Positions 21,669 to 43,831 of a stretch of DNA of 64,000 bases are shown in pieces. The stretch lies in NCBI GenBank assembly GCA_963733295.1, contig CAVTCS010000003.1, positions 1,792,001 to 1,856,000 of the forward strand, written 5' to 3'. The notes below the pieces were generated by a model. That model ran no database searches and had not been told where the DNA came from. It saw only the letters and a program-made list of their open reading frames with translations. The first letter of the stretch is position 1, and every line of letters starts with the position of its first letter. Position numbers and translations under genes: made by a program. The DNA comes from Vulcanimicrobiota bacterium (GTDB taxonomy: Bacteria; Vulcanimicrobiota; Vulcanimicrobiia; Vulcanimicrobiales; Vulcanimicrobiaceae).

Positions 21669-21671
21669 GCG

Positions 21672-25160: not shown

Positions 25161-25184
25161 CCCCGGATAGTCCGGCAACAAACC

Positions 25185-25227
25185 AAGGGCCCCGTCCTTT
25201 CTCAGAAAGGGCGGGGCTCTTTCGTTT
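25185..25227 (+). terminator. Rho-independent terminator
   Basis: 17-bp stem AAGGGCCCCGTCCTTTC / GAAAGGGCGGGGCTCTT (two G-U pairs), 3-nt loop, followed by TCGTTT. It lies 25 nt after the stop. Confidence 0.75.
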
Positions 25228-25267
25228 GGGTAGGCGCGCGCCGCAGCATCGTCGTAGTTCGCCCGGT

Positions 25268-26563
25268 ATGAAGGCGATACGGTTTCTCGCGTTGGCCTCC
25301 GTTGCATTGCTGGCAATCCCCGGACTCAGGCACCCCGCGCTGGCTCAGACGCCGAGCGGAGATTTCGGCTCCCCGCCATCGGGCGAGGTGCCGCTGCTTT
25401 TCAACGACCGGCACGTCTACGCGAAACCCGACCGTCAGAAATCGAATCGCGTGCTGGCCGCGCTCGTTCGCAACGGAACGATCCTCGTGCCGCTGCGCTC
25501 GATGTTCGAAGCGATGGGCGCGACCGTCACCTACGACGCCGCCACCAAGAGCGTCGACGTCTCGAAGGCCGGTGCCGACGTCAAGCTGACGCTCGACCAA
25601 CCGCAAGTCACGATCAACGGAGAGGTTCGTCCGCTCGACGTCCCGGCGATGATGTATCGCGGCACGATCGTCGTGCCCGTGCGCGTGATCTCCGAAGGGA
25701 TGGGCGCGTACGTCTTGTGGGTCGCCGAGAAACGGCTCGTCGTCGTGCGCTACATTCCGCCCGCGCCGCCGTCGCCGCCGCCGGCCCCACCGCCGCCGCC
25801 GCCGACACCCGCTCCGACGCCGATCGTGACCGCGCCACCGCTGCCCACACCGACGGCACCGCCTCCGCCGAAGAAGCCTTCACCCTACGAGCACTACATC
25901 GTGGGCGACTACCTTATCTCACCCAAGGTGTATAACGAATTCAGTCCCGGCAACACCGGTTCGAACGCGTTCCGTCTGGCGAGCGCGCTCGAGTTTCCGC
26001 TCTTCGGCTTTCCGTGGGAAGTCGGCGAAGATTACCGCGCTTTCTCGTATCCGCACAACGCCGGAGCACCGCCGTCGAGCTGTCCGCAGATCGGAAACCA
26101 AGGCTGCGTAAACGTCATCGGCGGTCAAGGGAAACAGAACTACGTGCCGGCGTTCAGCGCACGCGAAAGCGACGTCGATCTGCAAGTCGGCGCGAAGCTG
26201 GCCGACCCGCGCGTGTATCTCGACTTCGGCTACTTGACCCGTTGGAGCAACTACGGCTATCCGCGTGAAACCGGCATCGGGATCGGGCTCAACAAGCTAC
26301 CGGATCTCGACCACACGTTCTCCACGTACGCGAGCTTCTTCTACTATCCGTCAATCCAAGGCACCTATACCACCGGAAGCGGCGCGTCCGACGTGCTCGA
26401 CTACATCGTGATCAAGTGGGCCGTCGGTGCGACCTTGACGATTCCGAAATTCCCGGTGTATTTGGATGTGGGCTATCTCGGAGAGAACGGAGCGGGACGC
26501 AAGTCCGCGCCCGCGGGTTATTCCTACGCCGGCCCGTACGCGGGGCTCGGCATCCACTTCTAG
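25268..26563 (+). CDS. Paralog of 23877-25160: stalk domain + Pro-rich linker + probable beta-barrel
   Basis: Shares FGSPPSGEVP.L.ND.HVY.KPDR and VPVRVISEGMGAYVLWV; ends GLGIHF. Confidence 0.8.
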   Translation: MKAIRFLALASVALLAIPGLRHPALAQTPSGDFGSPPSGEVPLLFNDRHVYAKPDRQKSNRVLAALVRNGTILVPLRSMFEAMGATVTYDAATKSVDVSKAGADVKLTLDQPQVTINGEVRPLDVPAMMYRGTIVVPVRVISEGMGAYVLWVAEKRLVVVRYIPPAPPSPPPAPPPPPPTPAPTPIVTAPPLPTPTAPPPPKKPSPYEHYIVGDYLISPKVYNEFSPGNTGSNAFRLASALEFPLFGFPWEVGEDYRAFSYPHNAGAPPSSCPQIGNQGCVNVIGGQGKQNYVPAFSARESDVDLQVGAKLADPRVYLDFGYLTRWSNYGYPRETGIGIGLNKLPDLDHTFSTYASFFYYPSIQGTYTTGSGASDVLDYIVIKWAVGATLTIPKFPVYLDVGYLGENGAGRKSAPAGYSYAGPYAGLGIHF

Positions 26564-27498
26564 GGAGACCCTTGCTCCGCGGCGTGGAGCGCTGCCATGA
26601 CGGTCGCGGTCGTGAAGATCCGGCGGTCGTCGCTCGCGATTTCGCTCTGACGAAAGCGGCGGTCTCCAAGTGCGGACGAAAGCGGATCGGTGATCCGCAG
26701 GATGGGGGCGCTGGGCCAACTGCCATCCGCGTTCTGACGGGCCGCGAGGCGCCGTGAGATCGCGCCGCGGCGGGCCGCCCCCATCTCCAAAAGGACGGCA
26801 ATTTCAAGCGCGAGCGCTTCGTGAAAGCATGAGACCCCACTCGAAAGGTCGCAGCGTGAAAGTGCAAAGCGCGGCGCTCCGCCATCCTCCCGCTGCAGCC
26901 GCAAGAGTTCGTTCGCGAGATAGAGCGGTGACGGCCACCAATACGCAGCGGTGCTCGACGTTTCGCGCACGTAGGCGGCGAGCCGCGCGCGGCCCTTCCG
27001 AAGGATCACGTGCCCGGCGGGCAGGACGCCCGACAACGCGCGAAGCGCGACGACGGTCACGTCCGGATGTCCGGCGCACCAGCCGGGCCGGCCTTCGGAG
27101 GCGCGGTACGTTGCGAAATCGCCCGAGTCGAGTTGAAATTTGGCGAGCGCCGCGTAGTCACGGAGCGGTACTTCGTCGCCGATCGCGCGCAAGAAAAGAA
27201 TTGCACGGGCCGTCGAGTCCGCGTCGGGAGCGCAGCGCGTGTTGTAACCCCACCCGCCGCGCGGATCGCGTGCCGCGTTGATGAAGCTGCGCGCGCCGGC
27301 GAGCGCGGGAGCGGCGTCGACGCAACGAAGGGCACCGGCGACGCGAAGCAGGCTCGCGCCGACGTACGCGGTTACCCAGGCTTCGGAGCGGCCGGGTTTC
27401 AGCTGGAAATCACGCCAGGCTCCGTCCGCGTCCTGTGCCGCGACGACAAAGCTCGCGGCGTTCTCGACCGGCTCGTCGAGGGTTAGCGCGCTCTGCAT
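26560..27498 (-). CDS. Prenyltransferase/squalene-cyclase repeat (alpha-alpha barrel) protein
   Basis: QW-like repeats AQDADGAW, RDPRGGWGY, QLDSGDF and RQNADGSWP; PDADST acidic motif. Confidence 0.75.
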   Translation of the reverse strand: MQSALTLDEPVENAASFVVAAQDADGAWRDFQLKPGRSEAWVTAYVGASLLRVAGALRCVDAAPALAGARSFINAARDPRGGWGYNTRCAPDADSTARAILFLRAIGDEVPLRDYAALAKFQLDSGDFATYRASEGRPGWCAGHPDVTVVALRALSGVLPAGHVILRKGRARLAAYVRETSSTAAYWWPSPLYLANELLRLQREDGGAPRFALSRCDLSSGVSCFHEALALEIAVLLEMGAARRGAISRRLAARQNADGSWPSAPILRITDPLSSALGDRRFRQSEIASDDRRIFTTATVMAALHAAEQGSP

Positions 27499-28472
27499 AG
27501 CGTGGAGAGCGCCGCCCCGCTTATACCGACGCGCACCTCGACGCGCCCGCCGGTCGTCGCGCTCACTCCGACGGTGCCGTGATCGGGAAGTTCCGCGACG
27601 GGGACCGAGCCGAGCAAATCGCGGTACGTCGATGCCGGCTTGCCGGCGCTCCGCTCGTGCTCGAGAAAAAACTCGCGAACTCGTCCGACGTTCCCGAGCG
27701 AGCGAGACCGCGCGAACAGCGTCAGCAGCGGTTCTGGGTCGTCCGAAAGCGGCGTGATGCTATAGCCGAAGTTGATCCAGCGAAGAGCGGTGCGGGCCGG
27801 CACGTTGCACAGCGCTACGAACGCTTCAAGCACCGCGCCGCGACGCTCGCTTTGGAAGTGACCTCGCAGCAGCCGGTCGACATCGAGGAGACCGTGCATC
27901 GGCGGCTGGCGGAAATAGTATTCATACGTGCCGGTCCCGCAGTCGTAGCCGAGCATGATCAAGCGACTGTCCGGCGTCATGCGAAAGCGCTCCGCGCCGG
28001 CGGCAGCACCGCTGTTCTCCGGAAGCTCCAGATAGAGCTTGAACCGATCGGCGCGCTCACCTTGGCGGACGCCGAACCAGGCTCCCCAGCGCAGCGCTTT
28101 GCCGGTTTGAAGCGAGTGCCAGAACTCGAGCGCTTCGTGCGGCGGCGTTACGTCACCGAGCAGCCGGCAGAGTTCGACCGCGGCGCCGGCCCGAACGTGC
28201 GCAGCGAGTTCCGGGCCGCCCACTTCGATCGTATACCGTAACCGGTCGTCGCTGCTGGAGAAAGCGAGTTCGACGGGACTGCCATCGCCGTTCAAAGCGC
28301 TGAAATTCCACGCGGCGGCGGGTTGCGTCGATTCTTCGAAGCGCCGCAGACACCGAGCGAGCCCCTGCGCGATCCTCGCGGCTGACGCCGGCGAGCCGCC
28401 GCGAGCGGCCGCACCTCGCGCCGCATCCACGATGGTTCGCGCAGGACTCTCCAGCAGCGCCGTTTCGCTCAA
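27483..28472 (-). CDS. Putative aromatic prenyltransferase-like protein (ABBA/DMATS-like)
   Basis: LNGDGSPVELAFS...LRYTIEV and WFGV...FKLYLE resemble the D-x-[ST]-P-x-E, R-x-x-x-E and K-x-Y elements of DMATS-type enzymes. TTG start overlaps the upstream stop. Family call is tentative. Confidence 0.5.
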   Translation of the reverse strand: MSETALLESPARTIVDAARGAAARGGSPASAARIAQGLARCLRRFEESTQPAAAWNFSALNGDGSPVELAFSSSDDRLRYTIEVGGPELAAHVRAGAAVELCRLLGDVTPPHEALEFWHSLQTGKALRWGAWFGVRQGERADRFKLYLELPENSGAAAGAERFRMTPDSRLIMLGYDCGTGTYEYYFRQPPMHGLLDVDRLLRGHFQSERRGAVLEAFVALCNVPARTALRWINFGYSITPLSDDPEPLLTLFARSRSLGNVGRVREFFLEHERSAGKPASTYRDLLGSVPVAELPDHGTVGVSATTGGRVEVRVGISGAALSTLCRAR

Positions 28473-30739
28473 CTACCGGCGCTCACGAGCACGAGACTAT
28501 CTTGCGCGGTGATGTAGTTGCCTTGGGTTTTCTGGTTGGCATGGTCCAGGAGCGTAATCCGGTACTGATATTGGTTCTGCGTCGGATCGATTACCGGCAC
28601 GTGCACTTGCACCGGTTGGCTCGACCCGTTCATTTGAAACGTCGTCTGGAAGGCGTAGTTGTTGGTGGAGTCTTTGTACGACAGCTCGACGACCGCAAGG
28701 CTGATGGCGTTCGGATCGAAAGCGGGTTGGAACGTCAGGTTGAGGCCCCCGGCGAACGGATCGCTGACGATCAGCGCGCTGGCGGTGGTCGTCGTTGCGG
28801 GGTGGCTGATGAGCGTTCCGTCCTTCAAATAGCAGTTGGTCGAGTAGCTGTAGGTTCGCGCGCTCGTATCGGCGAGCCGCAAATTGAAGCTCTGCGCCGC
28901 CGCGCCCGGCCGCACCACGATCGTCGTCGAGGCTTGCCAGCCACTCGCTGCGGTGTACTGAATCGGGACCTCGATGCGATCGACCGTCCCCGGATCGATC
29001 CGGCCCGGTTGGATGGAGATCTGCAAGAAGCCGAGCGTGTCGAACGGGTCGAGCGTGAGCAAGCGGTTTTCGGTCGTGACGGGCGGCAACGTATACGAAG
29101 TCTTTTCACCTTGCCAGCCCGACTCGGGATCGAACTCGTAGTCGATCGTGTAGGTGTAGCTCGTTTTCTGAATCAGGCCTTCGAAGACCGCCCACGTCTG
29201 TTGCGTCGTGTGCGCCGGATCGAACACAAAATCGCCATGCTTCACGCCCGCGGCACTCGTCGGATCGCCGTAATCGAGGCCGACGTGAGCCGAGAGCAAC
29301 CCGATGCCCGTAAAATCGTGCGGCGGGTTGATCGTCACCGCGAAGTTGTTGAAGAACGGATCGTTCCCGGCAACCTTGAGGAAATGCTTGCTCAGGTCGA
29401 TGTTTGACAGCATCAAACCAAAGTAGCCCTGAGGCGAGTACGTCCGCTGCACCGCGTTCATTTGGTTGTACTCGTACTCGACGGTTTTCAGCTCGTCTTG
29501 TTCGACGAACTTCAGCCGCAGCGCGACGCCGAACGGCGAAGCCGCCGACGACGCCCCGGCAGCGGTACCGGCCGCTTTCGCGATCGCGTTCGCAACGGGC
29601 GCCGCCGCTGCCGCAACAGGTGACGGCGTTGCAGGCTTCGCGGGGGCTGCGGGCTTCGCAGGAGTTGCGGGCGTCGCGGAACCCGAAGGCGGCGCTGCGG
29701 TCATTGTGGTCGCGCCACCCGAAGCGCCTGCGGGAGCACCCATCGACCCCGAGGCCGGTTTTGCCGACGACATGCTCGAGGCACTCGACGGAGTGCTTCC
29801 CCCCATCGTCGTTGTCGGGGGCTTCGCGCTTTGCGCCGACGTCGTGGGCGACGTGCCGGTCGTGCCGTACGGCTTGGCGCCGGTGCTGACCGATTGTGCG
29901 TCGGCAGCTGCCGCCGTCGTCGGGCTCAAACTCGGCGTGAACCACGTCGACATGATCTGATCCTTGAACAAGTTCAGCGCCCACGTTTCGGCGCTCTGCG
30001 TCGCGGCGTCCGAGCTGAGGCTGATGACGTTGATCTGGATGACGCCGTCTTGGCGCAATTTCTCAAAGGTCGCATCGATCCCGGCGGAAACGAAGTACGC
30101 CTGCGCCGTCAGATCGACGCTGAACGACTCGTAGGCGCGCTTGAGATCGCAGGTGATCTTCACGTCGAGCGCCGGCAACACGCCGGTGAATTGCAGGTTG
30201 TAGATCCCGCCGACCGGCGTCATGCCGTCTTGAAAGGCTTGTTCGAGAATCGTCGCGCCTTCTTCGGTCAGCGTCAATCCGAACACCGCGTCGTTGTTGC
30301 CGAAGAGCTCGGGGCTGCTCGCGCCTAGGATGCGCTCCACGGCCTGCCCCGTGCCGGCCGGCGCGGCGCCGGCACTCGTACCGCCGGCACCCTGCAGATC
30401 GAGTGCGACGATTTGGACGGTGCCCGAGTCGAACGAGACCGGCGCGAGCTTCGGAGTGTCGACGTTCGGGAATTGGTTTCGAATCTGTCCGATGATCTGC
30501 GTCTGCGTATCGTCGCTGACTTTGAGGGCCAGCGTCACGTTGAGAAAGCCGCTGCCTTGTATGCCGGTGCCGGCGACGTCGGGCGCGTACATGATCAACA
30601 AGAACTGCGGTTCGTCGCTGCCGCTCTCAGACTCGAGGCCGACGGGACCTGGAAGATACCAAAACTGACTCGGATCGGCGTGATCCGGGAACACCGTGAT
30701 GCCGTTGACGGTAAAGGTGTCGCTCGAGAATAAAAGCAT
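28469..30739 (-). CDS. Large uncharacterised paralog A (shared N-domain, long Ala/Ser/Thr/Pro insert, 3 C-terminal beta repeats)
   Basis: 756 aa, no signal peptide. TVFPDHADPSQFWYLP...GFLNVTL...PELFGNNDAVFGLTLTEEGATIL aligns by eye with paralogs B and C. Confidence 0.85.
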   Translation of the reverse strand: MLLFSSDTFTVNGITVFPDHADPSQFWYLPGPVGLESESGSDEPQFLLIMYAPDVAGTGIQGSGFLNVTLALKVSDDTQTQIIGQIRNQFPNVDTPKLAPVSFDSGTVQIVALDLQGAGGTSAGAAPAGTGQAVERILGASSPELFGNNDAVFGLTLTEEGATILEQAFQDGMTPVGGIYNLQFTGVLPALDVKITCDLKRAYESFSVDLTAQAYFVSAGIDATFEKLRQDGVIQINVISLSSDAATQSAETWALNLFKDQIMSTWFTPSLSPTTAAAADAQSVSTGAKPYGTTGTSPTTSAQSAKPPTTTMGGSTPSSASSMSSAKPASGSMGAPAGASGGATTMTAAPPSGSATPATPAKPAAPAKPATPSPVAAAAAPVANAIAKAAGTAAGASSAASPFGVALRLKFVEQDELKTVEYEYNQMNAVQRTYSPQGYFGLMLSNIDLSKHFLKVAGNDPFFNNFAVTINPPHDFTGIGLLSAHVGLDYGDPTSAAGVKHGDFVFDPAHTTQQTWAVFEGLIQKTSYTYTIDYEFDPESGWQGEKTSYTLPPVTTENRLLTLDPFDTLGFLQISIQPGRIDPGTVDRIEVPIQYTAASGWQASTTIVVRPGAAAQSFNLRLADTSARTYSYSTNCYLKDGTLISHPATTTTASALIVSDPFAGGLNLTFQPAFDPNAISLAVVELSYKDSTNNYAFQTTFQMNGSSQPVQVHVPVIDPTQNQYQYRITLLDHANQKTQGNYITAQDSLVLVSAGS

Positions 30740-30769
30740 GGCGTTCTCAATGCTCCCGCGGGAGGCGGC

Positions 30770-33112
30770 TTAGGAGAGATTGTTGAGAGGAATGACTAGC
30801 GCGTTGCCGGCGATCGGCGTCCAGTCGATGCTCTTCGTCTGACCGTTCGTCAGTTGGATGTCGGCGCGGTATTGCGGCGCCACGTTCGGATCGACGTAGT
30901 CGTACGCAAAGCTGCGCACGTCGGCAGCGGTCGCAAGGGTGACCGACTCGCTGAGGTCGATCGCATTTGTCGCGTCGACGTAGCGAATGCCGACCACGAT
31001 CTGACCGATCTGGCTCGCCGTGAAGTCGACCTGCTGCGGCGCGATCGAAAGGATCTGATGTCCTTTCATGTTGTTCTGCAGCATCAGGTACTGATCCGAG
31101 GTCACCGATCCCGGAATGGTCCAGATTTGACCGTTCGTGTGGACGAGCTGCGCTTCGTAGTAGATCAGGTTCTGCGTTGGATCTTGCCGGTCGACGGTGA
31201 AAGGCGGCGCCGCCGCGTTGCTCGCGGTCAAGGTGTAGGTCTGTTGAACTGCGGGATTGCTCTTGCTGGGGTAAGCCACGAAAACCAGCGCCTCCTGAAA
31301 TTGGGTCCAGTCGAGCGCGGCGATCACATTGAGCGTGAGCTTTGAGGGGAACGGATCGACGACGTCGATCTTCGAGGCGCTGGTCGTAACCCACGGCGAG
31401 ACGCTCGTCCCGCCGGAGACGAGGCTGTAGGTCAAGCGGTACTGGAAGCTGCGCAGGCTCGGATCGCACATGAAGAGGGGCCAATCGACTTCGGGATTGG
31501 CGCTCGTCATGATCGCGCTCGGCTGCTCGTTGATGGCATTCTTCGCGTCGACGTAGCGGCACTCGACCTCGACGCTGGGATAGCGGTCCCAGGGAAAGCC
31601 GAACGCGCGAACCGGAATGACGGTCACGCCGTAGACGTCGCCCCGCGGCTCGATGTCGAGCACGTCGCCGGTAACCGTTTGCGGCGCGCTCGTGAGTTTG
31701 TTGGGCCGCTGGGTCGTATCGACGTTCATGAAGTTGACGGTGTAGGTGTAGCTCACCGGGCGCTGCATCTGGCCGTTCGAGAGCACGCTGCTCCAGTTAC
31801 AAGAACCTTGCGAGGCCGCGCCGGTCAACGAGACCGACTGAACGCTGCCGTTGTAGGTGAGGTTCACGTCGATCGAGGCGATCGAATCGCCGGCGAAGTC
31901 GGCGTGCGTGACCACGTTGACCGTGCGGCGCTGAAAATACGGATTGTCGAGATCGACCTTGACGACGAACTGCCCCAGGCCCGTTCCCGGTTTGAGTTCG
32001 CTGAGAAGACCGTTGAGATGGCCTTGGGGAAAGATCGTGCGCAGGACCGCGGTCTGCTCGGTCAGGTTGAAATCGAGGGACTTCTGATCGGTTTGCGAGA
32101 GGTCGATGTGCTTGTAGGAGTAACCCGCTTGACCCAACGGACCGGCCAGCGCGATGTCGCTGAGGTTCTTGACGGTGCTCGTGAACTTGTCCCAATCGTC
32201 GGGCTTATTGGGATCCGGCGGCGCCAGGCTCGACTGAAAGAAATTGTTCTTGACCAGCTCGTAGCATTCCGAGACAGCCCGGTCGCGGTCCGAGACGCCG
32301 GTTGCTCCCAGATCCGAATCTGTCGTGTACGACGAAACCTGGATGTTGATGACCTGATCCTCGATCAGCTTATCGACCGTCTTCTCGATGTCGCTCGAGA
32401 CAAAGAGAAAACCGCCACCGTATTGAGTATCGAGATAAGTCTGCACGCGGTTCCAGTCGGCGGTGAGTTGAACGTGAAAGGCAGGCCGCAGGCCCAGGAA
32501 TTGCAGCGAATAGATGACGGCGACCGGCGCCATCTCACCCTGCAGCGCCGCTTCGAGAACCGTCGCGCCGTATTGGTCGAGCTGGACGGAGAAGGTCGCT
32601 TGATTGTCGCCGTAGAGCGCGGGCTTCGTCGCGTTCTGCACTTTGATCACGAATTGCGGCCCGGACGCGGCCGGCGCCATCACCGCCGTCGCGGCTGCGC
32701 CGCTACTCGCGCCGGCCGGTCCGCCGGACGGCGCCGCCGCACCGCCCGTGGCCGGCGGACTTGCGCTTTGCGCTCCGAGGATCAGCAGGTCGACCGAACC
32801 ATCGACGAACGTCACCGGCGAGAGCCGCGGTTGCCCGGTCAGCTTCGCCTGCTGCTGGAGTTGACTGCTCACTTCGCTCAGCGCGTCCTGATCGATCCCG
32901 ATGTTGACGTCGAAATTGAGGAATCCGCCGGTTCCGGCAGCTCCCTCGTACTCGATCAGTTGCAGCTGTGGCGTGGCGACGTTCGTCTTCGGGTCGGTCA
33001 CCATCGTCAGGTGCGGCATCATCGGGAGGTAGTAGAACTGCAACGGATCTTTGTCGTCGGGGAAGACCGAGACTCCGTTGATCACAAAATACGGCGAGTT
33101 GAGGTACAGCAT
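30770..33112 (-). CDS. Large uncharacterised paralog B (shared N-domain, 4 C-terminal beta repeats)
   Basis: 780 aa. SVFPDDKDPLQFYYLP...GGFLNFDV...PALYGDNQATFSVQLDQYGATVL. Confidence 0.85.
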   Translation of the reverse strand: MLYLNSPYFVINGVSVFPDDKDPLQFYYLPMMPHLTMVTDPKTNVATPQLQLIEYEGAAGTGGFLNFDVNIGIDQDALSEVSSQLQQQAKLTGQPRLSPVTFVDGSVDLLILGAQSASPPATGGAAAPSGGPAGASSGAAATAVMAPAASGPQFVIKVQNATKPALYGDNQATFSVQLDQYGATVLEAALQGEMAPVAVIYSLQFLGLRPAFHVQLTADWNRVQTYLDTQYGGGFLFVSSDIEKTVDKLIEDQVINIQVSSYTTDSDLGATGVSDRDRAVSECYELVKNNFFQSSLAPPDPNKPDDWDKFTSTVKNLSDIALAGPLGQAGYSYKHIDLSQTDQKSLDFNLTEQTAVLRTIFPQGHLNGLLSELKPGTGLGQFVVKVDLDNPYFQRRTVNVVTHADFAGDSIASIDVNLTYNGSVQSVSLTGAASQGSCNWSSVLSNGQMQRPVSYTYTVNFMNVDTTQRPNKLTSAPQTVTGDVLDIEPRGDVYGVTVIPVRAFGFPWDRYPSVEVECRYVDAKNAINEQPSAIMTSANPEVDWPLFMCDPSLRSFQYRLTYSLVSGGTSVSPWVTTSASKIDVVDPFPSKLTLNVIAALDWTQFQEALVFVAYPSKSNPAVQQTYTLTASNAAAPPFTVDRQDPTQNLIYYEAQLVHTNGQIWTIPGSVTSDQYLMLQNNMKGHQILSIAPQQVDFTASQIGQIVVGIRYVDATNAIDLSESVTLATAADVRSFAYDYVDPNVAPQYRADIQLTNGQTKSIDWTPIAGNALVIPLNNLS

Positions 33113-33138
33113 AACGGTGCTCCGATCGCGAGCGGCGC

Positions 33139-35436
33139 TTAGGGTCCGGTGAGGACGAGGTCGGTGTCGCTCGACGTGACCGGCGCCTGCTTTACCACCT
33201 GCGGCGGCGTCGTCGCTAAGTAGTAGGTCGCCGTATACGTGTAGGCGGTCTTCGTCGGATCCTTCGTATAGAAGGTCCAGGTCGCCGGGGTTGCGCCGGT
33301 CGGCTTGAGCACGATCTCCTGCGCGAGCGAGAGATTGTTGGCGGTATCGGTGTATTGAAACTCGATCTGGGCCAGCTTGATCTTCGTGAAATCGAGCAGC
33401 GCCGGATCGGGCGTGACGGTGACGATCTTCTGGTTAGGCGGCCCGAAGGTGACGAGGCTCGCCGTCGTCGTCGTGCTCGGAATGTCCAGCGTCGTGTTGT
33501 CGGTGTTCGTTACGACGCCCGAGTAGCTGAGCTGCCCGTTGCTGCCGGGGATCACGAGGAACGTCCAGTCGTGGCTGCGGTTGGCGGAGCTGAACTGGTA
33601 TTCGGAAGCCTGCTGATAGTTGTAGGTGGTGTCGGCGTAGGTCATCTTCAGGAAGATGTTGTTGATTTCGTTCGTGAAGTCGCCCTCGGCGAGGAAGCTC
33701 ACCGTCTTCGGAATGAACAGATTGTTGATGAACAGCTCGCGCGTGTTGTCGGACTGCCAGGGCTTGACGACTTGCGTGCCGTCGGCTAAAACGTAGGTGA
33801 CCTGGTATTGGTACTGCTTGTCGACCGTCTTGAGCATGACGACGGCCATCGACGCCGTCCGATTGTTGGTATCGAACGAGAACTGACGGCTCACTGCCGC
33901 GCCGCTCGGATCGGGATCGGGATATTTGAGCGCGACTTGAACCTGCGGAACCTTCGTGAAGTCGACGTTGCTGACGGTGATGTTCACGAAAAGGACGCCC
34001 AAGGTTCCGACGTCGATCGTCGTCACGAGATCCTGCGTCGTGTAGACCGGCGAGGCATACGGCTGATTCTCGTCGACGTAATTGACCTTGAACGAGTAGC
34101 CGTAGTGCATGTCGCCGCCGGTCGTGTCTGAGTCGAACTTGAGAACGTCGTCCGGCCCGGTGAAGTGGAAACCTTCGACCGTGGGCGGCGTGCTCTTCGG
34201 ATAGGTGCAGTTGAGGTCGACGCTCTGAATGAGGAACTTCTGGTAGTCGGCGTTGACCATCAGCGTCGCGTGGATTTGCGCGAAGAAGGGGTCGTTCGCG
34301 TTGATCGTCTCGATATAGTTGCTGAAGTTGGGCACGTTCGGCAGCGTGCCTTGCTGGACGGTTTCGTAAACGATGCTGTCGTCTTGTTCATAGTATTCGT
34401 TGAAGTTGAACACAGCTAGGCTCGACTCGTTACGGCTGACGTTCTTCATCCCGTCGTCGCTGCGGTCCGATCCGAGGTCCGCGCCGGTGTTGCTGCCGGT
34501 CACGCCTCCGCTCGAGCTTCCCGAGGACGAGCCGGAAGAACCGTTGCTCGTCGAGCCGGTCGAACTCGCCGGGGTGCTGCTCGAACTCGAAGTTTGGCCA
34601 CTCGCACCGAGCACGTTCTGCGCTGCGATGTTGAGCTGTTGGAAACCCCAGTTCGTAAGGTCGCTTTGCATCTTGGCGACGTTGGGATCGGTCATGTCCA
34701 TGCCGGTGAAGTCGAACTTCACGCCGCCCGAATCCGATTGGATGAAAGCCTCGCGCATCGTCTCGTTCTCGGTGTTGTCGCCGCTGTCCCAACTGCCGCC
34801 GCTCTTGTTGATCGTCTGATAGAACGAGGCGAACTTGACGGCGTCGAACCAGACGTTTCCGGTGACGGGCGGCAGCGCCGCCGCGTAGCTGAGATCGTAC
34901 GCGATCTGGATGACGCCGCCCTGACCGCTGAGCGCCCCTTTCACGACCGCTGCACCTTCGGGTGAAAGCTCGGCCGTGAACGAGCAGATCAGCGAACCGA
35001 GCAGCGAAGGCTTGCCCGCGCTCTCGATCTTCGTGACGAGCGCTCCGCCGCTGTCGAGCAGCGTCAGCGAAGAGGTGCCCTTGATGAAGCTCGGCAGGGA
35101 GATCTTCGCGGTGGCGGGATTGCCTTGTCCGTCCTTGACGTTGTTGGTTTTGAGCATCGCGTCGAGTTGGTTTTGGAGCGCGCTCCTGGTCGTGTTCGAA
35201 AGGACGAAACACGAGTCGAAGATGAGGAAACCGCCGCCCTTGCTGCCGTCGGGACGGTCGACCGGCATCAAGTACTCGATGAAGTTGACGACCGGCTTGT
35301 TGGTCTTCGGGTCGATGCGGATGCTCGGCTCGTTGGGCATGACGTAGAAGATCGTCTGATCGACGGTATCGGCATAGGCCGTGACGGTCGAGCCGGCGCC
35401 GTCGCTGAGGTTGAGTGCGGGATAGAGCTTGAGCAT
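33139..35436 (-). CDS. Large uncharacterised paralog C (shared N-domain, Ser/Gly insert, 4 C-terminal beta repeats)
   Basis: 765 aa, RBS AAGGAG. TAYADTVDQTIFYVMP...GGFLIFDS...PSLLGSLICSFTAELSPEGAAVV; NDPFF motif shared with A. Confidence 0.85.
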   Translation of the reverse strand: MLKLYPALNLSDGAGSTVTAYADTVDQTIFYVMPNEPSIRIDPKTNKPVVNFIEYLMPVDRPDGSKGGGFLIFDSCFVLSNTTRSALQNQLDAMLKTNNVKDGQGNPATAKISLPSFIKGTSSLTLLDSGGALVTKIESAGKPSLLGSLICSFTAELSPEGAAVVKGALSGQGGVIQIAYDLSYAAALPPVTGNVWFDAVKFASFYQTINKSGGSWDSGDNTENETMREAFIQSDSGGVKFDFTGMDMTDPNVAKMQSDLTNWGFQQLNIAAQNVLGASGQTSSSSSTPASSTGSTSNGSSGSSSGSSSGGVTGSNTGADLGSDRSDDGMKNVSRNESSLAVFNFNEYYEQDDSIVYETVQQGTLPNVPNFSNYIETINANDPFFAQIHATLMVNADYQKFLIQSVDLNCTYPKSTPPTVEGFHFTGPDDVLKFDSDTTGGDMHYGYSFKVNYVDENQPYASPVYTTQDLVTTIDVGTLGVLFVNITVSNVDFTKVPQVQVALKYPDPDPSGAAVSRQFSFDTNNRTASMAVVMLKTVDKQYQYQVTYVLADGTQVVKPWQSDNTRELFINNLFIPKTVSFLAEGDFTNEINNIFLKMTYADTTYNYQQASEYQFSSANRSHDWTFLVIPGSNGQLSYSGVVTNTDNTTLDIPSTTTTASLVTFGPPNQKIVTVTPDPALLDFTKIKLAQIEFQYTDTANNLSLAQEIVLKPTGATPATWTFYTKDPTKTAYTYTATYYLATTPPQVVKQAPVTSSDTDLVLTGP

Positions 35437-35451
35437 GTCGTCTCCTTAGAG

Positions 35452-37290
35452 TTAAGAGCTTGCCGCGATCGGAACGGGAGCGGAAGCCGGCATCGTGCCG
35501 TCCGCGCCGAGCAACAATGGTTGGAACGGGGATAAAATCGGCGACCAGGCCGCGGCCGGCGCCGGCGGCGCCGCCGAACGGCGGTAGCGATAACCGGGAT
35601 GAAACGGTGACGCGGCGACGTAACCCCAGGTCGAGCTCGGCTGCATCGCGGTGAGCATCAAGAGATCCGGCGTGGCAGCGGCGTCCGCACTTTGTGCTTC
35701 GCTTTGCAGTTCGAGGACGAGCGCGCCGTCCGCGCTGCCCAGATCGGCCCGGACCTCGATCGTGTGCGGACCGTACTCGCGAAAGAGCGGCAGGTCGACG
35801 TTGATGCGGCCGGGTTGCGTCGGCGCAAGCGCGAGCGGCGCGCCGCCGTCGTTCGGCTGCGCGCTGAGTTGCAGCGAAGCATCGACGGCTTCGCGCGGGA
35901 TCCCGACCGAGAGACTCGGCGTCGCCGGCGTGAGCGTGAACTGTTGCGCCGCGATGCGGCCGCCGTACGTGTATTGCAGCGCAACGGTCAGCGTGGCGAG
36001 CGCGAGCAACCGATCCGCTGCGGTGACGTGCGCGAAGGTTACCAGAAAATCGTCCGCCGTCAGCGTGACCCACGCGTCGCTGCACGGACGGGCTGCAGGC
36101 GCGTCGAGTTCGACCGGCAGCGCACCCGGCACGGCAAGCAATGCGAAACTTCGCACGCCGTAGCCGAACGCTTCGCCGGGGCTCAAATGCAGAACGGCCG
36201 AAGCGCGGTCCGAGGGCTCCGCGAGCACGACTTGCACGCTCGAGCTCGCGGGGCGGAAGGGCGGGTTTGCGGCCAACTCAATGTTCGCGCCGATCGCCGG
36301 AACGCCGTTTCGATTGGGCGGCAGATTGGCCGTGACGTCGATGCTGTAGACGCCGGCCTCGAGCGGCGGCGCCACGATCTCTTTGACGAAGAAGTCGAGC
36401 CCGTTCTTGGCAACCGCGGCCCGCAGATCGCTCGTCGCGTCCAGCTCGAGCACCCATTGTCGATACGCGAGCGCGGGCAGGCTCAGATCCCACGCGATCG
36501 TGCCCGGCGTCAACTGCGCGACGTCGACGAAGGCGACGGTCGCGGGATCGCTGAGTCCGGGCGCCGCGGTCAGCGACGCGAACGCGGCGATGACGCGATC
36601 GGCCATGGCCTGCGCGAATTCGGCTGCGATCGTTCCGCTGGTTTTCAGCGGCAGAGCGGTGGCTTGCGTAAACGCTGCGAGCACGTCGGCGACCGCCATC
36701 GTGCGCGACGTCTTCCCTGCCAACAGCGCCGTCAGCAGTGCGACCGGGTCGAACTGGACCGAAGCCTGAGTGCGCTGCGCGACGCCTGCCGCGTCGAATT
36801 CGAGCCGCACGCCGAGGAGCAGCGAACCGCCCGCGAGCGAACCTTTGACCAACTCGCCCGCATCGGCCGAGAGCCGCGGCGTCCAGCGTGCGCCGTCCGG
36901 GCTGAGCCAGCCCAGCGGAACCGGTGTCAGGAGATCCGCCGCCGGCACGACTTGCGTCGTCGTCGGATAGAGGCGTGCGAAACCCGAATGAATCGAGAGC
37001 GGCTGCACGGTCGCGTCAGCGACGCTGGAGCGCACCGCAGCGAGCGCCGCATCGAGCGGAAAGTCCCAGCCGACCGTCAGGTCGAGCACCGCGTGCGAAC
37101 CGCTCGCCGTCAAGTCGCCCATTTGTTCGAACAGCTCGAGCAACACTTTGGGATTACCGTTCGCGTCGCTCGCGAGCGTCGCGCGCTGCGGTACCACGGC
37201 GTAGCTTCCGCCGGAGAACGGCGCAAACGTGGTGGCGGCGTCGCTCGACGCGAGCGTTGCAAAATCGGGCAAACCCGCGAGCGCCTCCAT
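35452..37290 (-). CDS. Large uncharacterised protein D, divergent member of the same family
   Basis: 612 aa; ATG directly follows the upstream TAG. SYAVVPQRATLASDANGNPKVLL...RLSADAGELVKGSL parallels the shared domain; C-terminal beta repeats ending GYRYR. Confidence 0.75.
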   Translation of the reverse strand: MEALAGLPDFATLASSDAATTFAPFSGGSYAVVPQRATLASDANGNPKVLLELFEQMGDLTASGSHAVLDLTVGWDFPLDAALAAVRSSVADATVQPLSIHSGFARLYPTTTQVVPAADLLTPVPLGWLSPDGARWTPRLSADAGELVKGSLAGGSLLLGVRLEFDAAGVAQRTQASVQFDPVALLTALLAGKTSRTMAVADVLAAFTQATALPLKTSGTIAAEFAQAMADRVIAAFASLTAAPGLSDPATVAFVDVAQLTPGTIAWDLSLPALAYRQWVLELDATSDLRAAVAKNGLDFFVKEIVAPPLEAGVYSIDVTANLPPNRNGVPAIGANIELAANPPFRPASSSVQVVLAEPSDRASAVLHLSPGEAFGYGVRSFALLAVPGALPVELDAPAARPCSDAWVTLTADDFLVTFAHVTAADRLLALATLTVALQYTYGGRIAAQQFTLTPATPSLSVGIPREAVDASLQLSAQPNDGGAPLALAPTQPGRINVDLPLFREYGPHTIEVRADLGSADGALVLELQSEAQSADAAATPDLLMLTAMQPSSTWGYVAASPFHPGYRYRRSAAPPAPAAAWSPILSPFQPLLLGADGTMPASAPVPIAASS

Positions 37291-39405
37291 CTACGAGCCG
37301 GCCTGCACGTAAAACGAATCCTGATTCGAGGTGACCGGAGTGCCTTGCGTCGTTCCGGCACCGGTGATGACGTCGACGCGGTACGTGTAGTTCGACGTAT
37401 CGCCGGACTGCAGTACGTACGCTTCGACCGGCACCGAAAGCGAGATCGTCTGCGTCATCACGCCGTTCACGGCCGGAATCGACGGGTCGAAGTTCGCGGT
37501 TTGTCCGTCGGCGAAGACGACCTGCACCGCCATGATCGGCGGCGACGTGGCCGGCGCGGGAGCGCTGCTCGCCGCAGGAGCGGTGCCGGCGCCTACCGGC
37601 GCGGCGGTTGCGGCCGCAGCGAAGACCGAACTGAAGAGGATGACTTTGATGTCGCGCTTGACCGGTGCAACGACCTGGTTCTGCATGATCGCTTCCCAAA
37701 TCGCAGCCGGATCCGGCTCGACCTGAGTGTTGCTGTAGTCGAACTGCACCGAACACGAGCTGTCGATCGCCTGTCCCGCAGCCAGCTGCATGACGATCGT
37801 CAACGTATCCGGCGCGGGCGCGGCGCTCCCCGACGCGGCCGGTGCGCTTGAGACCGGCTTCAGATCGAGCGGCGGCGCAGGCTTGGTCTGTTGGGTCACG
37901 CTCGTCACCGGCACGCCGCCTTTGAGCAGCACGGCGGGCAAAGCGTCAACGTGAATCGGGCTCTCGATGCCGTTCTCCAGAACGACGGTCAGTTGGTTCT
38001 TGAGCGGATCGAACGAGGTCGTCGAGGCGAAGATGTCGCCGGCAAAATCGGAAGCGCTCGACTCGAACGGAATCTGTTCGACGTCCGAGCCGACCGTCAC
38101 GCTCACGACGCCGGAGAGCAGCTGCGTGACCTTTTCGAACAGCGCGGCGTAGACTTGACGGAACTGTGCCATCGAGAGCGCGAGCGAACACTTGATGCCG
38201 GCGGCGATGTCGATCTGAGCGCCGGCTTGCGCGACGAGGCCGGGCGCAGCCGACGGGTCGCTCGGAGGCACCGTCAGCGAAAGCGCCGTCGTGGTCGCTT
38301 CGAATAGACTGAGCGTGGGAAGCGCCGCCAGCCCGAGCGTCGTCTGAAGCGATTGCGCGGCGGCAGTCAGCCGGTTGGGGTCCCACACGGGAACCGCAAG
38401 AAAGGTCAGCGTGAAGGTGAGCGAGTTCGGATCGTCGCCGTTGGTGCTGACGACGATGCTCGGCGCGTGGGGCGGGGCGGGTTGCCGGCTGATCTTGAAC
38501 GAGTCCGGCAAGAAATATATCTGATTCGGTTGGTTGAGGTCTTGATAGTACGGATAGGAGCGCCCTTGCCAGCTGACTTGCTGGATGTTCCAGGATGGCG
38601 CTCCGCTTCCGATGTCGCTCAAACCGGCAAACACGTTCTTGTCGAGCACCGGATCGAAGCTGAACGGCAGCGTCGAATCGATGGCCGTGACCGCGGCACG
38701 ATAGAGCGGCTGCGCCGGCGGCGGCCCGGATGCCGGCGGAGGCACGGGAGTCGCCACACTGAACGAACGCCGCAGAATTAGTTTCGCTTGCGCCGCTTGA
38801 TCGGTCATCGCGTGATAGATCTGATCGCGGACCGCGGGATCGGTGACGACGAGCGAGAGGACGAGGTCGCCGGCCTCAGTCGTAGCCGTCCCGAAATCCC
38901 AGCTAGCGGCTTGTCCTTGCAGGTTCGCCGTCAACATGTAGCGTGTCGCGCTCGGAACGATCGCCGCGTTCCCTTGCGCGAGCGTCGTGGGACTGACGTC
39001 GGCGAGGTGTACCATCAGCGTGAAGCCCGCGGCGGTGGGCGCGAAGGTGACCCAGCGCTGCGAGGAGCCGCCGCTGCCTCGGGTCGCGACCGCGTACTGC
39101 TGCAGATAGTGTTTCTTCGTCGCGTCTTGCGGCTCTTCGAAAAGCGTCGAATCGACGGGCGGCGCGACGGGTGAAATCAAAGTCGGCAGCGCGAAACCGC
39201 TGCGCGGCTGCGGCGTGCCGAGGAACCACCCGAAGGACGGGTTGCGCATGTAGATGAGCGAGGGATTGAACGTGCTGCGCGTGGCCGAGGTCGCAACCGC
39301 GGTCGGAAACATCACGGGCCGCATAACGGCAGTCGGCGCCGTCACCGGCGCGGCTTGGGTAACCGGCCGTGGCGCGAACGTATGAAGCGTCATGAAGTTC
39401 GGCAT
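37291..39405 (-). CDS. Large uncharacterised protein E, first gene of the operon, with an apparently duplicated N-domain
   Basis: About 704 aa from ATG at 39405 (start uncertain). TLFEEPQDATKKHYL and PYYQDLNQPNQIYFLP both resemble the family N-terminal motif; C-terminal NYTYRVDV repeat. Confidence 0.75.
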   Translation of the reverse strand: MPNFMTLHTFAPRPVTQAAPVTAPTAVMRPVMFPTAVATSATRSTFNPSLIYMRNPSFGWFLGTPQPRSGFALPTLISPVAPPVDSTLFEEPQDATKKHYLQQYAVATRGSGGSSQRWVTFAPTAAGFTLMVHLADVSPTTLAQGNAAIVPSATRYMLTANLQGQAASWDFGTATTEAGDLVLSLVVTDPAVRDQIYHAMTDQAAQAKLILRRSFSVATPVPPPASGPPPAQPLYRAAVTAIDSTLPFSFDPVLDKNVFAGLSDIGSGAPSWNIQQVSWQGRSYPYYQDLNQPNQIYFLPDSFKISRQPAPPHAPSIVVSTNGDDPNSLTFTLTFLAVPVWDPNRLTAAAQSLQTTLGLAALPTLSLFEATTTALSLTVPPSDPSAAPGLVAQAGAQIDIAAGIKCSLALSMAQFRQVYAALFEKVTQLLSGVVSVTVGSDVEQIPFESSASDFAGDIFASTTSFDPLKNQLTVVLENGIESPIHVDALPAVLLKGGVPVTSVTQQTKPAPPLDLKPVSSAPAASGSAAPAPDTLTIVMQLAAGQAIDSSCSVQFDYSNTQVEPDPAAIWEAIMQNQVVAPVKRDIKVILFSSVFAAAATAAPVGAGTAPAASSAPAPATSPPIMAVQVVFADGQTANFDPSIPAVNGVMTQTISLSVPVEAYVLQSGDTSNYTYRVDVITGAGTTQGTPVTSNQDSFYVQAGS

Positions 39406-40010: not shown

Positions 40011-40574
40011 ATGGCTTTATTGAGCGTCGCTCAAGTTGCTGCCAAGGGCGCACAGCAGCGCCCGGACTTTAAGATTTCGTGGCGCCCGGCGCTAGCCGCG
40101 TATGCGGCACAATATACGGCTGCAGCGAAGGCAACCGATCTCGTGCAGCCGTGCATGCTGGCCGCGATCGTCTGCCGGGAAACCGGCGGACAGAATATTT
40201 TGCAGATCGGCATGCCGCCCGGCGCCGGCTGCGGGGTCGGCTTGACCCAGATTACGAGCGGCGTCGACTGGAGCGTCTCGAGCGCTCCAACCTATCCGGG
40301 CTACGGACCGCTGCTCGACCCGCAAACGAACCTTAAGGTCTGCGCGGTCGAGTTTCTCGAACCGCTTCTCAACATGTTTTCCGACAATCACATCGCGGCA
40401 TTTGCCGCGTACAACGTCGGTGCGGGCAACGTGCAAGAGGAGCTCAAGGAAGGGGTCAGTCCCGACGCCTGGACGACGGGGCACGACTATGGGACGTCGG
40501 TCTTCGAGTCGTGGATCAACTTCACCGCGGCCTCGTGCGGCGACAACGTCGACTGGGCCAGCTACAAACCCTAA
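40011..40574 (+). CDS. GH23 goose-type lysozyme / lytic transglycosylase, copy 1
   Basis: AAIVCRETGG catalytic Glu, GLTQI, AAYNVG and TTGHDY motifs; RBS AGGAGG; no signal peptide. Confidence 0.85.
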   Translation: MALLSVAQVAAKGAQQRPDFKISWRPALAAYAAQYTAAAKATDLVQPCMLAAIVCRETGGQNILQIGMPPGAGCGVGLTQITSGVDWSVSSAPTYPGYGPLLDPQTNLKVCAVEFLEPLLNMFSDNHIAAFAAYNVGAGNVQEELKEGVSPDAWTTGHDYGTSVFESWINFTAASCGDNVDWASYKP

Positions 40575-40588
40575 TCCCGGAGGTCGGC

Positions 40589-41530
40589 ATGACCGGACAG
40601 ATCGGAAGCATTCTCGACGCCGCGCTCGTCCTCTCCGCGCTCTTTGTCGCCCTGAGTTGCGTTTGCTCGTTCGTCAACGAGCAGATCGCCGCGCTCTTGA
40701 GTTGGCGCGGACAAAAGCTCTACCTCGGCATCTTGAATTTGGTGAGCGGGACGGTGCCGCTGGTCGACGCCGTTTTTGCACATCCCTTGCTCGATGCCTC
40801 GTCAAACGACAAGAGCGGAATCTACCGCAAGAACTCGCCCAACCGGCCGTCCTACGTCGACGCGCGCAATTTTTCGATGGCCTTCTGGCAGAGCGTGCTC
40901 GCGGGCAAAGCCGCCCTGCCTGCCGGCTCGCCGGCTGTGGGCGCGGCCGCGACGGCCATCGTTACCGAGCCCAAAGTGTTTCTCGATGCGGTCCGCCAGA
41001 ACGCCCAAGCGATTCCCGACGAATCGCTACGGGCCAGCGTCTCCTCGCTGCTCGTTACCGCCGGCGACGACTACGAGAAGTTGCTCAAGGCCACCGATGC
41101 GTGGTTCAACGCCCAGATGGATCGCGTCTCGGGCTGGTACCGCCGGCAAACCCAGTACGTGCTGATCGGCATCGCCGCGATCGTGGTCATCGGCACGGGG
41201 CTGGACAGCATCGAGATCGGCAAGCATCTCTACGCCACGCCGATTGCGCTCAGCGCGGCCGCCGCGTCGATTCAGGGCGCCTTCCCGAACGGACAAGCCG
41301 ATCCGGCGAAACTGCAAGCGGCCTACACGACGGTGCTGGCGGGTGAAAACATGCAGCAGTTCCTTCACCCGCTCTTCCAAGATTTCGGCACGCACTATCC
41401 CGGCATGATCGCAACGTTAATCGCGCTTTCGCTGGGAACGCCGTTCTGGTTCGACGCACTGGGCAAACTCGTCAACGTCCGGATGGCCGGCGCCAAGCCG
41501 CCCTCCGCCCCTTCCTCTTCATCGACATAA
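40589..41530 (+). CDS. Conserved hypothetical membrane protein (3 hydrophobic segments)
   Basis: RBS GGAGG; N-terminal TM; PSYVDARNF, WFNAQMDRVSGWYRR and LGTPFWFDALGKL. Confidence 0.8.
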   Translation: MTGQIGSILDAALVLSALFVALSCVCSFVNEQIAALLSWRGQKLYLGILNLVSGTVPLVDAVFAHPLLDASSNDKSGIYRKNSPNRPSYVDARNFSMAFWQSVLAGKAALPAGSPAVGAAATAIVTEPKVFLDAVRQNAQAIPDESLRASVSSLLVTAGDDYEKLLKATDAWFNAQMDRVSGWYRRQTQYVLIGIAAIVVIGTGLDSIEIGKHLYATPIALSAAAASIQGAFPNGQADPAKLQAAYTTVLAGENMQQFLHPLFQDFGTHYPGMIATLIALSLGTPFWFDALGKLVNVRMAGAKPPSAPSSSST

Positions 41531-43484: not shown

Positions 43485-43831
43485 GCGTGCAATCGACCCA
43501 GACTAGTGTCGAGATCGAATGGGACGACAGCGTCGTCATCATCTTCTCCTTTGCCGGTGCTGACGGCAAGATCTATTGCGGTTTTCCGCACGTCGTGCCG
43601 GCGTGGCAGAATCAGACCGGAACTCAGACGCAAGTCTCGGCAACCGTGCAGAAAATTCAGCAATCCGCGATGCAGATCAGCGGCGACCCAGGGACATGGG
43701 TCGAGACGGTCAAGCAAGGCGCCAGAAACGGAAAGATCACCGTCGTCTACGACGATTCGACCAACACGAACTACACGACGCAGACCGGGCAGCCATACCA
43801 GCTGCAGATCTTGTACAGTCTCACCGGTTGA
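43481..43831 (+). CDS. Small hypothetical protein (116 aa), last gene of the lysozyme operon
   Basis: ATGA overlap with the upstream stop; protein-like composition; followed by the palindrome ACGGGCCGGCCCGT. Confidence 0.7.
   Translation: MSVQSTQTSVEIEWDDSVVIIFSFAGADGKIYCGFPHVVPAWQNQTGTQTQVSATVQKIQQSAMQISGDPGTWVETVKQGARNGKITVVYDDSTNTNYTTQTGQPYQLQILYSLTG

Follow-up and report, generated by a model that had tools for sequence, protein, structure and literature searches.

A cassette of five ancient paralogs in fixed gene order across at least five bacterial phyla: a new protein family and a possible protease-licensed effector

Background

What is encoded by a run of five large proteins that resemble each other, carry no family name and keep the same order in very different bacteria? 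The question is raised by a stretch of 64,000 nucleotides (nt) from a Vulcanimicrobiota bacterium (assembly GCA_963733295.1, contig CAVTCS010000003.1, positions 1,792,001 to 1,856,000 of the forward strand), which is referred to below as the window and whose own coordinates are used throughout. It contains seven tightly packed minus-strand genes (26560-39405) in the order E-D-C-B-A, followed by F329 and G312 (Table 1). A first-pass annotation, made from the nucleotide sequence, had described A-E as a family that was expanded by duplication into non-equivalent subunits, each with an N-domain and immunoglobulin (Ig)-like arms of different length; the interval it gave, 28469-39405, corresponds precisely to the stop of A and the start of E on the minus strand. 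The start of E at 39405 and its length of 704 amino acids (aa) are the same in a public protein collection. E and D abut without a gap, D-C, C-B and B-A are separated by 15-30 nt, and A/F329 and F329/G312 overlap. The cassette is present as a single copy in the genome of the window, and a scan for promoters and terminators yielded chance-level signals only.

Domain architecture of the paralogs

The relationship between A, B and C is evident from direct comparison. BLASTP connected A to B with an E-value of 5e-37, B to C with 6e-12 and A to C with 1e-8, and HHalign returned a probability of 100 for the A/B/C pairs over 620-660 columns. Judged by these alignments the three are full-length paralogs, with a similarity far beyond chance. 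Five motifs had been proposed for the family. When written as regular expressions all five were recovered in B and C and four in A, where the pattern G-[GS]-F-L is not matched and GSGFL is found at that place by eye; none was recovered in D and E. The N-domain common to A, B and C, with its [VA][FY]xDxxDxxxF[YW][YV][LM]P start, was confirmed both by these expressions and by HHalign (probability 100). Covariation within this domain (Meff, the effective number of sequences, 241; 265 columns) gave no coherent ladders.

The C-terminal parts of A, B and C consist of tandem repeats with a period of around 90-100 aa that start after a DPFF/NPYF boundary. A hidden Markov model (HMM) iterated from one B repeat recovered three copies in A (462-548, 573-657, 666-750), four in B (392-478, 496-582, 588-676, 686-772) and four in C (384-471, 484-568, 578-662, 667-760). 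The repeat profile, applied via HHalign as a second method, gave identical counts with a probability of 95-99.6%, in exact agreement with the numbers proposed earlier; the arms indeed differ in length, with three repeats in A versus four in B and C. When each profile was compared with itself, off-diagonal matches appeared in B at shifts of around 100 (98%) and 196 residues (97%), in A at around 105 (94%) and in C at 190 (97%).

The 88-column consensus of the repeat shows around seven alternating-hydrophobic segments. In a mean-field covariation analysis of 613 copies of the repeat (effective number 348), 25 of the top 44 couplings belonged to four antiparallel ladders, between strands B-E (2-5; 13 couplings), E-F (5-6; 6), B-C (2-3; 3) and A-D (1-4; 3). 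Given these segments and ladders we read the repeat as a Greek-key beta-sandwich, and the couplings support an arrangement in which a sheet 3-2-5-6 would be packed on a second sheet with strands 1, 4 and probably 7. As for the proposed 'Ig-like arms', the covariation speaks for a two-sheet beta-sandwich, whose C-B-E-F (3-2-5-6) strand order seems closer to the prealbumin type than to the classical Ig sandwich.

D and E are more diverged, and neither showed significant similarity to A-C when shallow alignments were used. Deeper profiles (100 sequences for B, 96 representatives for D and 57 homologs for E) connected D to B with a probability of 94.5 (E-value 8e-8) over 430 collinear columns, which span the N-domain, the middle segment and the first one and a half repeats of B. 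The values for A-D (95.7, 9e-9) and C-D (94.6, 7e-8) were similar, and D matched the N-domain family profiles at 94-97%. D had been listed as a divergent member, and the all-versus-all HHalign with deep profiles (probability 94-96) bears this out, the similarity to A-C being present rather than missing. On the basis of these profiles, a single N-domain, so far without a name, is common to A, B, C and D. Iterated HMMER searches started from the N-domain of A, B and C drew in D slowly and E never.

The N-domain is also found beyond the five paralogs of the window. Among the 150 D representatives listed, 33 carry a C-terminal extension of 182-478 aa that is an N-domain homolog (97.5% to A and B). 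This sixth N-domain occurs as a separate gene, c0, in six metagenome loci, and in the four of these that also show flanking cassette genes it sits between D and C. For E, single-family profiles reached only 11-37% (E 286-378). A merged profile composed of the A, B and C orthologs, the extension of the long D proteins, c0 and D matched residues 271-480 of E (YYQDLNQPNQIYFLP) at 74% with an E-value of 2.7e-5 over 162-192 columns, whereby the FYYLP-type motif, the next strand and the 'LSxxGAxxVxxAL' helix region were aligned in the centre of E. The distant E homolog of Pararhizobium matched the N-domain independently (64%, E-value 6.6e-5). The centre of E thus carries a probable N-domain, which would make E a member of the family. 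Two N-domains had been suggested for E: the second, central copy is the one just described, while the first motif (TLFEEPQDATKKHYL, E 84-134) reached E-values of 0.009-0.017 only and is not significant. Nor could it be established that D and E have fewer repeats, since D showed three weak repeat-like matches (E-values 0.003-0.016) and E one at its C-terminus (0.002); the last ~80 residues of E weakly resemble the end of a repeat (4e-4 to 2e-3).

At its N-terminus (window ~39190-39260) E displays, behind a variable A/P-rich leader, a conserved NPxxLxFRNPx[FL]G...PRSxF[AS]LPTLISP segment that is found in all lineages sampled (L001-L042, our locus numbers) and reads RNPxFG...PRSxFxLPTLISP in the window. 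This segment could be a processing or docking site.

All five proteins are acidic, with an isoelectric point of 4.4-4.7, and no N-terminal signal peptide was found on any of them. Hydrophobic 19-mers above the cut-off are lacking in A, B and D, and C and E each have a single such segment, which is internal. Considering the fact that the invariant residues are of the structural type only (G, P, D and aromatics), A-E look structural and not catalytic.

Phylogenetic spread and conservation of gene order

Of 8000 candidates scored against B, 355 matched at E-values <=0.001, none of them with a name other than 'hypothetical', and the D profile collected 512 representatives at 50% identity clustering. 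Gene order was inspected in a sample of 37 loci, 12 from genomes and 25 from metagenomes, many of them too short to show the flanks. The genome loci derive from Acidobacteriota, Eremiobacterota, Sphingomonadales, Udaeobacter, Saprospiraceae and one unclassified bacterium. Thirty-two loci hold two or more cassette genes, and in all of them (32/32) the genes share a strand and follow the relative order E, D, C, B, A, F329, G312; this order recurs in Acidobacteriota, Eremiobacterota, Proteobacteria, Verrucomicrobiota and Bacteroidota. Nine genome loci are not truncated by the end of a contig, and all nine contain the five core genes. Of the 12 genome loci, 10 have F329 after A and 7 have G312, both genes being missing from L001 and L012.

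In a tree of the N-domains each of A, B, C and D forms a clade of its own (support 0.995, 0.37, 0.995 and 1.0, respectively), with the topology ((A,B),C),D and with every sampled phylum inside each clade. The paralog clades branch alike, L011/L012 being deepest and L008 next. Because each paralog clade contains every phylum, the duplications appear to predate the spread of the cassette, which would move as a block. Judged by the sequences, each paralog is an orthologous lineage of ancient origin whose place in the gene order is the same in at least five phyla, and the earlier suggestion of an expansion by duplication into non-equivalent paralogs is corroborated by the clades as well as by the gene order. 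At the same time, the distribution is patchy. B is present in 7 of the 301 genomes sampled from the host phylum, all seven in one family, the sole same-genus genome sampled (83% complete) gave no cassette match, and the identity between phyla is 61-71%. The cassette is an accessory element and is horizontally mobile.

Fusions between cassette genes are of two kinds. D and E are fused in 7 of the 150 listed D representatives (1422-1516 aa), and A is joined to F329 in a single reading frame of 1080 aa in L007 (12369-15611). In the D-E fusions (P0262, P0272, P0289, P0311, P0312, P0325 and P0331) D comes first, although the operon runs E then D.

Divergent variants, with paralogs that are labelled 'hypothetical protein' in RefSeq, occur on megaplasmids of two cultured strains. 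The order in Pararhizobium qamdonense T808 (plasmid p2) is E-D-C-C'-B-x-x-A, and the plasmid of Paracoccus sp. SMMA_5 (pNSM5TCa of SMMA_5_TC) has five A/B/C-type paralogs. A tblastn search with D against plasmids gave no match.

Searches for known families

Scans of Pfam-A and NCBIfam at E-values <=1 left A-E without a match, apart from two chance-level Pfam matches on C. Pilin_GH was touched weakly and non-significantly by 3 of 36 members (E-value 0.017). Sequence and profile searches of the PDB returned nothing meaningful, and no relatives of A-E were present in PHROGs, phage genomes and viral contigs. The look-alikes obtained from an atlas were clusters without a name, except for one that carries the automatic name 'Ig-like domain-containing protein', and the atlas restricted to named clusters gave nothing. 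Every source-given name among the matches to B, C, E and F329 was 'hypothetical protein'. A description of the cassette was not found in the literature searched, which did not cover supplementary tables, and those of PMC7159879 could list the genes otherwise labelled. As A-E could not be connected to any family, structure or paper, they constitute, on present evidence, a new family of proteins, and their cassette is of a new kind.

The accessory genes F329 and G312

G312 aligns end to end with known structures, with E-values of 3.5e-19 for 8pak, 2.2e-17 for 8paj and 3e-15 for MstE (overall range to 1e-14). Its DADST motif is aligned with the DADST and DADTT of monodomain class II terpene cyclases, and the G312 of the window and 6 of 7 orthologs retain the DxD[ST]T motif. 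In terms of sequence G312 is a monodomain class II terpene cyclase-like protein. No literature relevant to 8PAK and 8PAJ was found.

F329 is less clear. The window protein had zero Pfam matches, and neither the PDB profile search nor a search with PF11991 retrieved anything; 2 of 15 orthologs touch Trp_DMAT weakly (E-value 0.12). F329 is possibly an ABBA-type prenyltransferase, and given the lack of a significant family match the label 'prenyltransferase-like' is only a guess.

Proteases and hydrolases around the cassette

A protease gene lies 49-2141 bp from the cassette in 10 of the 37 loci. S8 peptidases are found beside it in L001, L008, L009, L024 and L028, and belong to at least three unrelated lineages (L001; L008; L009/L024/L028). 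AvrRpt2-like C70 peptidases take this place in L032, L033, L038 and L042, three C14 caspase-like genes do so in L012, and a C1 papain is present in L033. In Paracoccus genes for an EAD1-trypsin, an EAD1 protein and a STAND nucleoside triphosphatase (NTPase) are located directly upstream of the paralogs on the same strand, and the run of paralogs itself includes a PLD-like protein and a G312-like fusion. Five protease families therefore flank the cassette overall (S8, C70, C14, C1 and trypsin), and by eye none of the proteases in the 10 loci has an evident N-terminal signal peptide.

Other recurring neighbors include enzymes that attack cell wall or lipids. In the window the cassette is adjoined by the genes of an SLT lytic transglycosylase, the multi-transmembrane (TM) protein U339, an M15 peptidase, U392 and c5 (Table 1); SLT, M15, U392 and c5 lack a hydrophobic segment and, by eye, a signal peptide. 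Homologs of these accessory genes adjoin the cassette in other Eremiobacterota loci in different arrangements. Those of c5 are found directly upstream of E in L007 and around 1.2 kb downstream of the cassette in L003, and U339 adjoins the cassette in the window, L003 and L025, in the latter two loci together with a patatin. GH19 with PG_binding_1 flanks the cassette in L008 and L032, and a T4-type lysozyme in L003 and L005. Taken together, leaderless peptidoglycan hydrolases of four families plus patatin recur in the window, L003, L005, L007, L008, L032 and L025.

Genes for adenylate/guanylate cyclases were observed within a few kb of the cassette in L009 (64-2816) and L023 (3172-7226, with CHASE2), and on the Pararhizobium plasmid (NZ_CP119567, 839145-846027) such a gene is found beside a Crp/Fnr regulator near the cassette. 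These neighbors hint at cyclic-nucleotide control.

Table 1. Genes of the cassette, their parts and the adjoining genes (positions in the window)
Feature	Coordinates (nt)	Strand	Length (aa)	Remarks
Gene A	28469-30739	-	756
A, N-domain	29945-30739	-		aa 1-265
A, linker		-		aa 266-400; S/T/A/P-rich
A, middle segment		-		aa 401-461; conserved
A, three repeats	28490-29356	-		aa 462-750; ~90 aa each
Gene B	30770-33112	-	780	most conserved paralog
B, N-domain		-		aa 1-295; low-complexity insert 111-150
B, middle segment		-		aa 296-391
B, four repeats	30797-31939	-		aa 392-772
Gene C	33139-35436	-	765
C, N-domain		-		aa 1-270
C, linker		-		aa 271-340; S/G/T-rich; middle segment follows
C, four repeats	33157-34287	-		aa 384-760
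Gene D	35452-37290	-	612
D, diverged N-domain	36541-37257	-		~aa 12-250; followed by region collinear with middle segment and first repeats of B
Gene E	37291-39405	-	704	A/P-rich N-terminus
E, first motif region	39004-39156	-		aa 84-134; unsupported as domain
E, central probable N-domain	37966-38595	-		aa 271-480
E, repeat-like end		-		aa 626-704; C-terminal
F329	27483-28472	-	329	start overlaps stop of A by 4 nt
G312	26560-27498	-	312	monodomain class II terpene cyclase-like
SLT lytic transglycosylase	40011-40574	+		divergent, upstream of cassette
U339	40511-41530	+		multi-TM protein; hydrophobic (TM) segments
M15 peptidase	41548-42333	+
U392	42306-43484	+		alpha/beta-hydrolase-like
c5	43481-43831	+	116	small protein, beta-rich by eye; overlaps stop of U392 by 4 nt

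Possible function of the cassette

Conflict systems offer a logic into which these observations can be placed. In such systems EAD1 is described as recruiting effectors, among them lysozyme and peptidoglycan peptidases (PMC7159879), and protease-gated pore effectors are presented as widespread (bioRxiv 10.1101/2025.11.14.688446). The leaderless core, the variable and equally leaderless proteases, the STAND/EAD1 module in one host and the leaderless enzymes directed at wall and lipids fit such a logic. For this reason we tentatively favor the reading that A-E form a protease-licensed, hetero-oligomeric effector that breaches membranes or lyses the cell, a reading that we hold to be possible and still more doubtful than likely. 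More explicitly, the order conserved across phyla, the D-E fusions and the A-F329 fusion suggest that the five proteins would co-assemble as non-equivalent subunits, and the assembly would serve as effector in conflict or programmed lysis. A neighboring cytoplasmic protease would license them, probably by cutting the disordered linkers or the N-terminus of E, after which the activated assembly would breach the cytoplasmic membrane. The co-encoded leaderless peptidoglycan hydrolases and lipases could then reach their substrates, with cell lysis as a result. F329 and G312 may together attach or provide a terpenoid lipid as an aid to membrane targeting.

A number of observations weigh against a protease-licensed effector. 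No protease is shown in 27 of the 37 loci, though many of these are short. The locus of the window has no adjacent protease or STAND gene; the nearest S8 gene (55889-57742) is 16 kb off and is not orthologous to the cassette-linked S8s, and C70, C14 and EAD1 found no match in the genome of the window (97% complete). A Pfam-A scan of the five window proteins and 36 orthologs (E-values <=1) produced no MACPF/CDC, aerolysin, leukocidin or other pore-former. Gasdermin gave no Pfam match at that threshold either, and PF04598 retrieved nothing in the genome at E-values <=10. PADLOC-DB v2 contributed only a chance-level match of B to a TIR effector model (E-value 0.029). The distal repeats are conserved and not hypervariable, and with 13 kb and five subunits the effector would be far larger than known protease-gated effectors. 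F329 and G312 are absent from two loci, as mentioned above, and their role is conjectural. The AvrRpt2-type cleavage motif, presumably PxFGxW, was considered and dropped as evidence: it does not occur in the E proteins of the C70-linked loci, where the sole partial match is internal (L038, residue 388). Exact copies of it stand at the N-terminus of E in L003 and L004, and a near form does so in the window and L020.

Several other explanations have to be considered. A-E might build a toxin or particle in the cytoplasm that is released by lysis and directed against other organisms, following the logic of Tc toxins and tailocins; the multi-TM protein and the endolysin-like enzymes would then provide release in the manner of type 10 secretion, and the beta-sandwich arms would bind the targets. 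The lack of signal peptides on both A-E and the peptidoglycan hydrolases agrees with this, as do the endolysin-type families near the cassette (SLT, M15, GH19 with PG_binding_1 and T4-type lysozyme), the three loci in which U339 adjoins it and the arms of repeated beta-sandwiches. PHROGs, phage genomes and viral contigs supplied no relatives, however, the Paracoccus link to a STAND NTPase, EAD1 and trypsin points to intracellular sensing, the repeats show no hypervariability, the hydrolases are missing from many loci and the likeness to Tc toxins and type 10 secretion is drawn by analogy; on balance such a particle seems unlikely, if still worth serious attention. Somewhat less credit is given to an envelope-spanning or surface structure (a fibre, an adhesin stalk or a novel export apparatus), in which the paralogs would stack in gene order and the hydrolases would be needed for insertion into the wall. 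The fixed order of five paralogs is reminiscent of rod, hook and minor-pilin sets, the nearby peptidoglycan hydrolases fit, and the non-significant Pilin_GH matches point in the same direction. Yet the conserved core has no signal peptides, membrane anchors, ATPase or export gate, a patchy accessory distribution is unusual for an envelope organelle, and the proteases and the STAND/EAD1 link would be left unexplained.

That the accessory genes vary between loci would be expected if the paralogs acted independently, as binding or scaffold proteins in tandem without a joint complex, with the proteases and hydrolases being coincidental island cargo. The occurrence of all five genes in the same order in every untruncated genome locus across phyla, the similar branching of the paralog trees, the fusions and the recurrence of proteases of five families make this improbable. 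Least plausible of all, and very unlikely, is a meroterpenoid natural-product locus with F329 and G312 as its core and A-E as carriers, self-resistance or storage layer. The MstE-like similarity of G312 (E-values 3.5e-19 to 1e-14), its retained DxD[ST]T motif and the fusion of F329 to A are in line with it; L001 and L012, however, keep A-E without F329 and G312, the conserved core lacks a polyprenyl synthase and tailoring genes, and F329 has no significant family match.

The protease-licensed effector can also be pictured in a stronger form. A-E, stacked in gene order, would then be a machine resembling the membrane attack complex (MAC) of complement, licensed by a variable neighboring protease (with STAND/EAD1 upstream in some hosts), lipidated by F329/G312 with a cyclised terpenoid and letting the leaderless peptidoglycan hydrolases out to lyse the cell. 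This picture is drawn by analogy and is rather improbable; if true, it would represent a new class of programmed-lysis or immunity effector, a new fold family and a new protein lipidation. The cassette itself is a conserved element of 11-13 kb with five ancient paralogs, present in soil bacteria of at least five phyla, without an assigned family, structure or function. If it encodes a protease-gated lysis or immunity effector, a large multi-subunit type would join a field of small single-protein effectors; a toxin particle or surface machine would be equally unexplored. The variants in the cultured strains P. qamdonense T808 and Paracoccus sp. SMMA_5 make the cassette directly testable.

Other genes of the window

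Further away on the minus strand (54529-57742) an alpha/beta-hydrolase-like protein with a GHSFGG nucleophile elbow (54529-55497) is encoded beside the S8 subtilase mentioned above (PF00082, E-value 3.8e-44). The pair is reminiscent of zymogen defence modules that combine a protease with an alpha/beta-hydrolase (bioRxiv 10.1101/2025.11.14.688446). A kinship between this hydrolase and U392 was considered and rejected, as the two have only the nucleophile elbow in common.

The region 50000-54000 is a patch of low guanine-plus-cytosine content (0.53-0.56 versus ~0.62 elsewhere), with an 873-aa protein that by eye has a P-loop and a C-terminal LuxR-type helix-turn-helix (MalT-like), and a 150-aa OmpR-type winged-helix protein. 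It is preceded by a CN_hydrolase gene and a TldD/PmbA metallopeptidase pair (46114-50057, plus strand). On the other side of the cassette, two tandem paralogs on the plus strand (23877-26563; 427 and 445 aa), each with Cu_amine_oxidN1 and an N-terminal hydrophobic segment that looks signal-peptide-like by eye, are convergent with the end of the cassette. The minus-strand region 14521-23081 encodes a cytochrome c, three tandem SBP_bac_5 paralogs (542, 533 and 546 aa), an OEP outer-membrane factor and an HlyD-type membrane-fusion protein.

Comparison with known systems

The repeats of A, B and C are similar to Ig-like or prealbumin-like seven-stranded Greek-key repeats in their period of around 90-100 aa, their seven strands and their ladders; they match none of the Ig-like families of Pfam. 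G312 resembles the cyclases MstE, 8pak and 8paj over its full length and in its acidic motif, yet it is set in a protein-only cassette, unlike the cyclases of recognisable terpenoid clusters.

Bacterial gasdermin-protease systems (bioRxiv 10.1101/2021.06.07.447441) combine leaderless proteins with variable neighboring proteases (caspase-like, subtilase), as is seen for A-E at some loci. A-E differ in having no sequence similarity to gasdermins, in consisting of five paralogs of 600-780 aa versus one protein of ~270 aa, and in their beta-sandwich repeats. An N-terminal domain, a linker and a C-terminal region, together with a patchy accessory distribution, are traits that both share.

The protease-effector and EAD1/STAND modules (PMC7159879; bioRxiv 10.1101/2025.11.14.688446) have their counterpart in the EAD1-trypsin, EAD1 protein and STAND gene upstream of the Paracoccus cassette, in the S8, C14, C70 or C1 peptidases at other loci and in the co-encoded enzymes that attack peptidoglycan. 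In contrast, A-E match none of the effector families compared (MBL, alpha/beta-hydrolase, Pepco, EACC1 and bGSDM), no EAD was detected in A-E, and the window locus is without a protease or STAND gene.

Finally, hetero-oligomeric pores made of paralogs, such as complement C6-C9 and the bicomponent or tripartite bacterial toxins, invite comparison. A-E differ from these in showing no similarity of the MACPF, leukocidin or ClyA type. The likeness is in the organization, as in both cases several non-equivalent paralogs are kept together.

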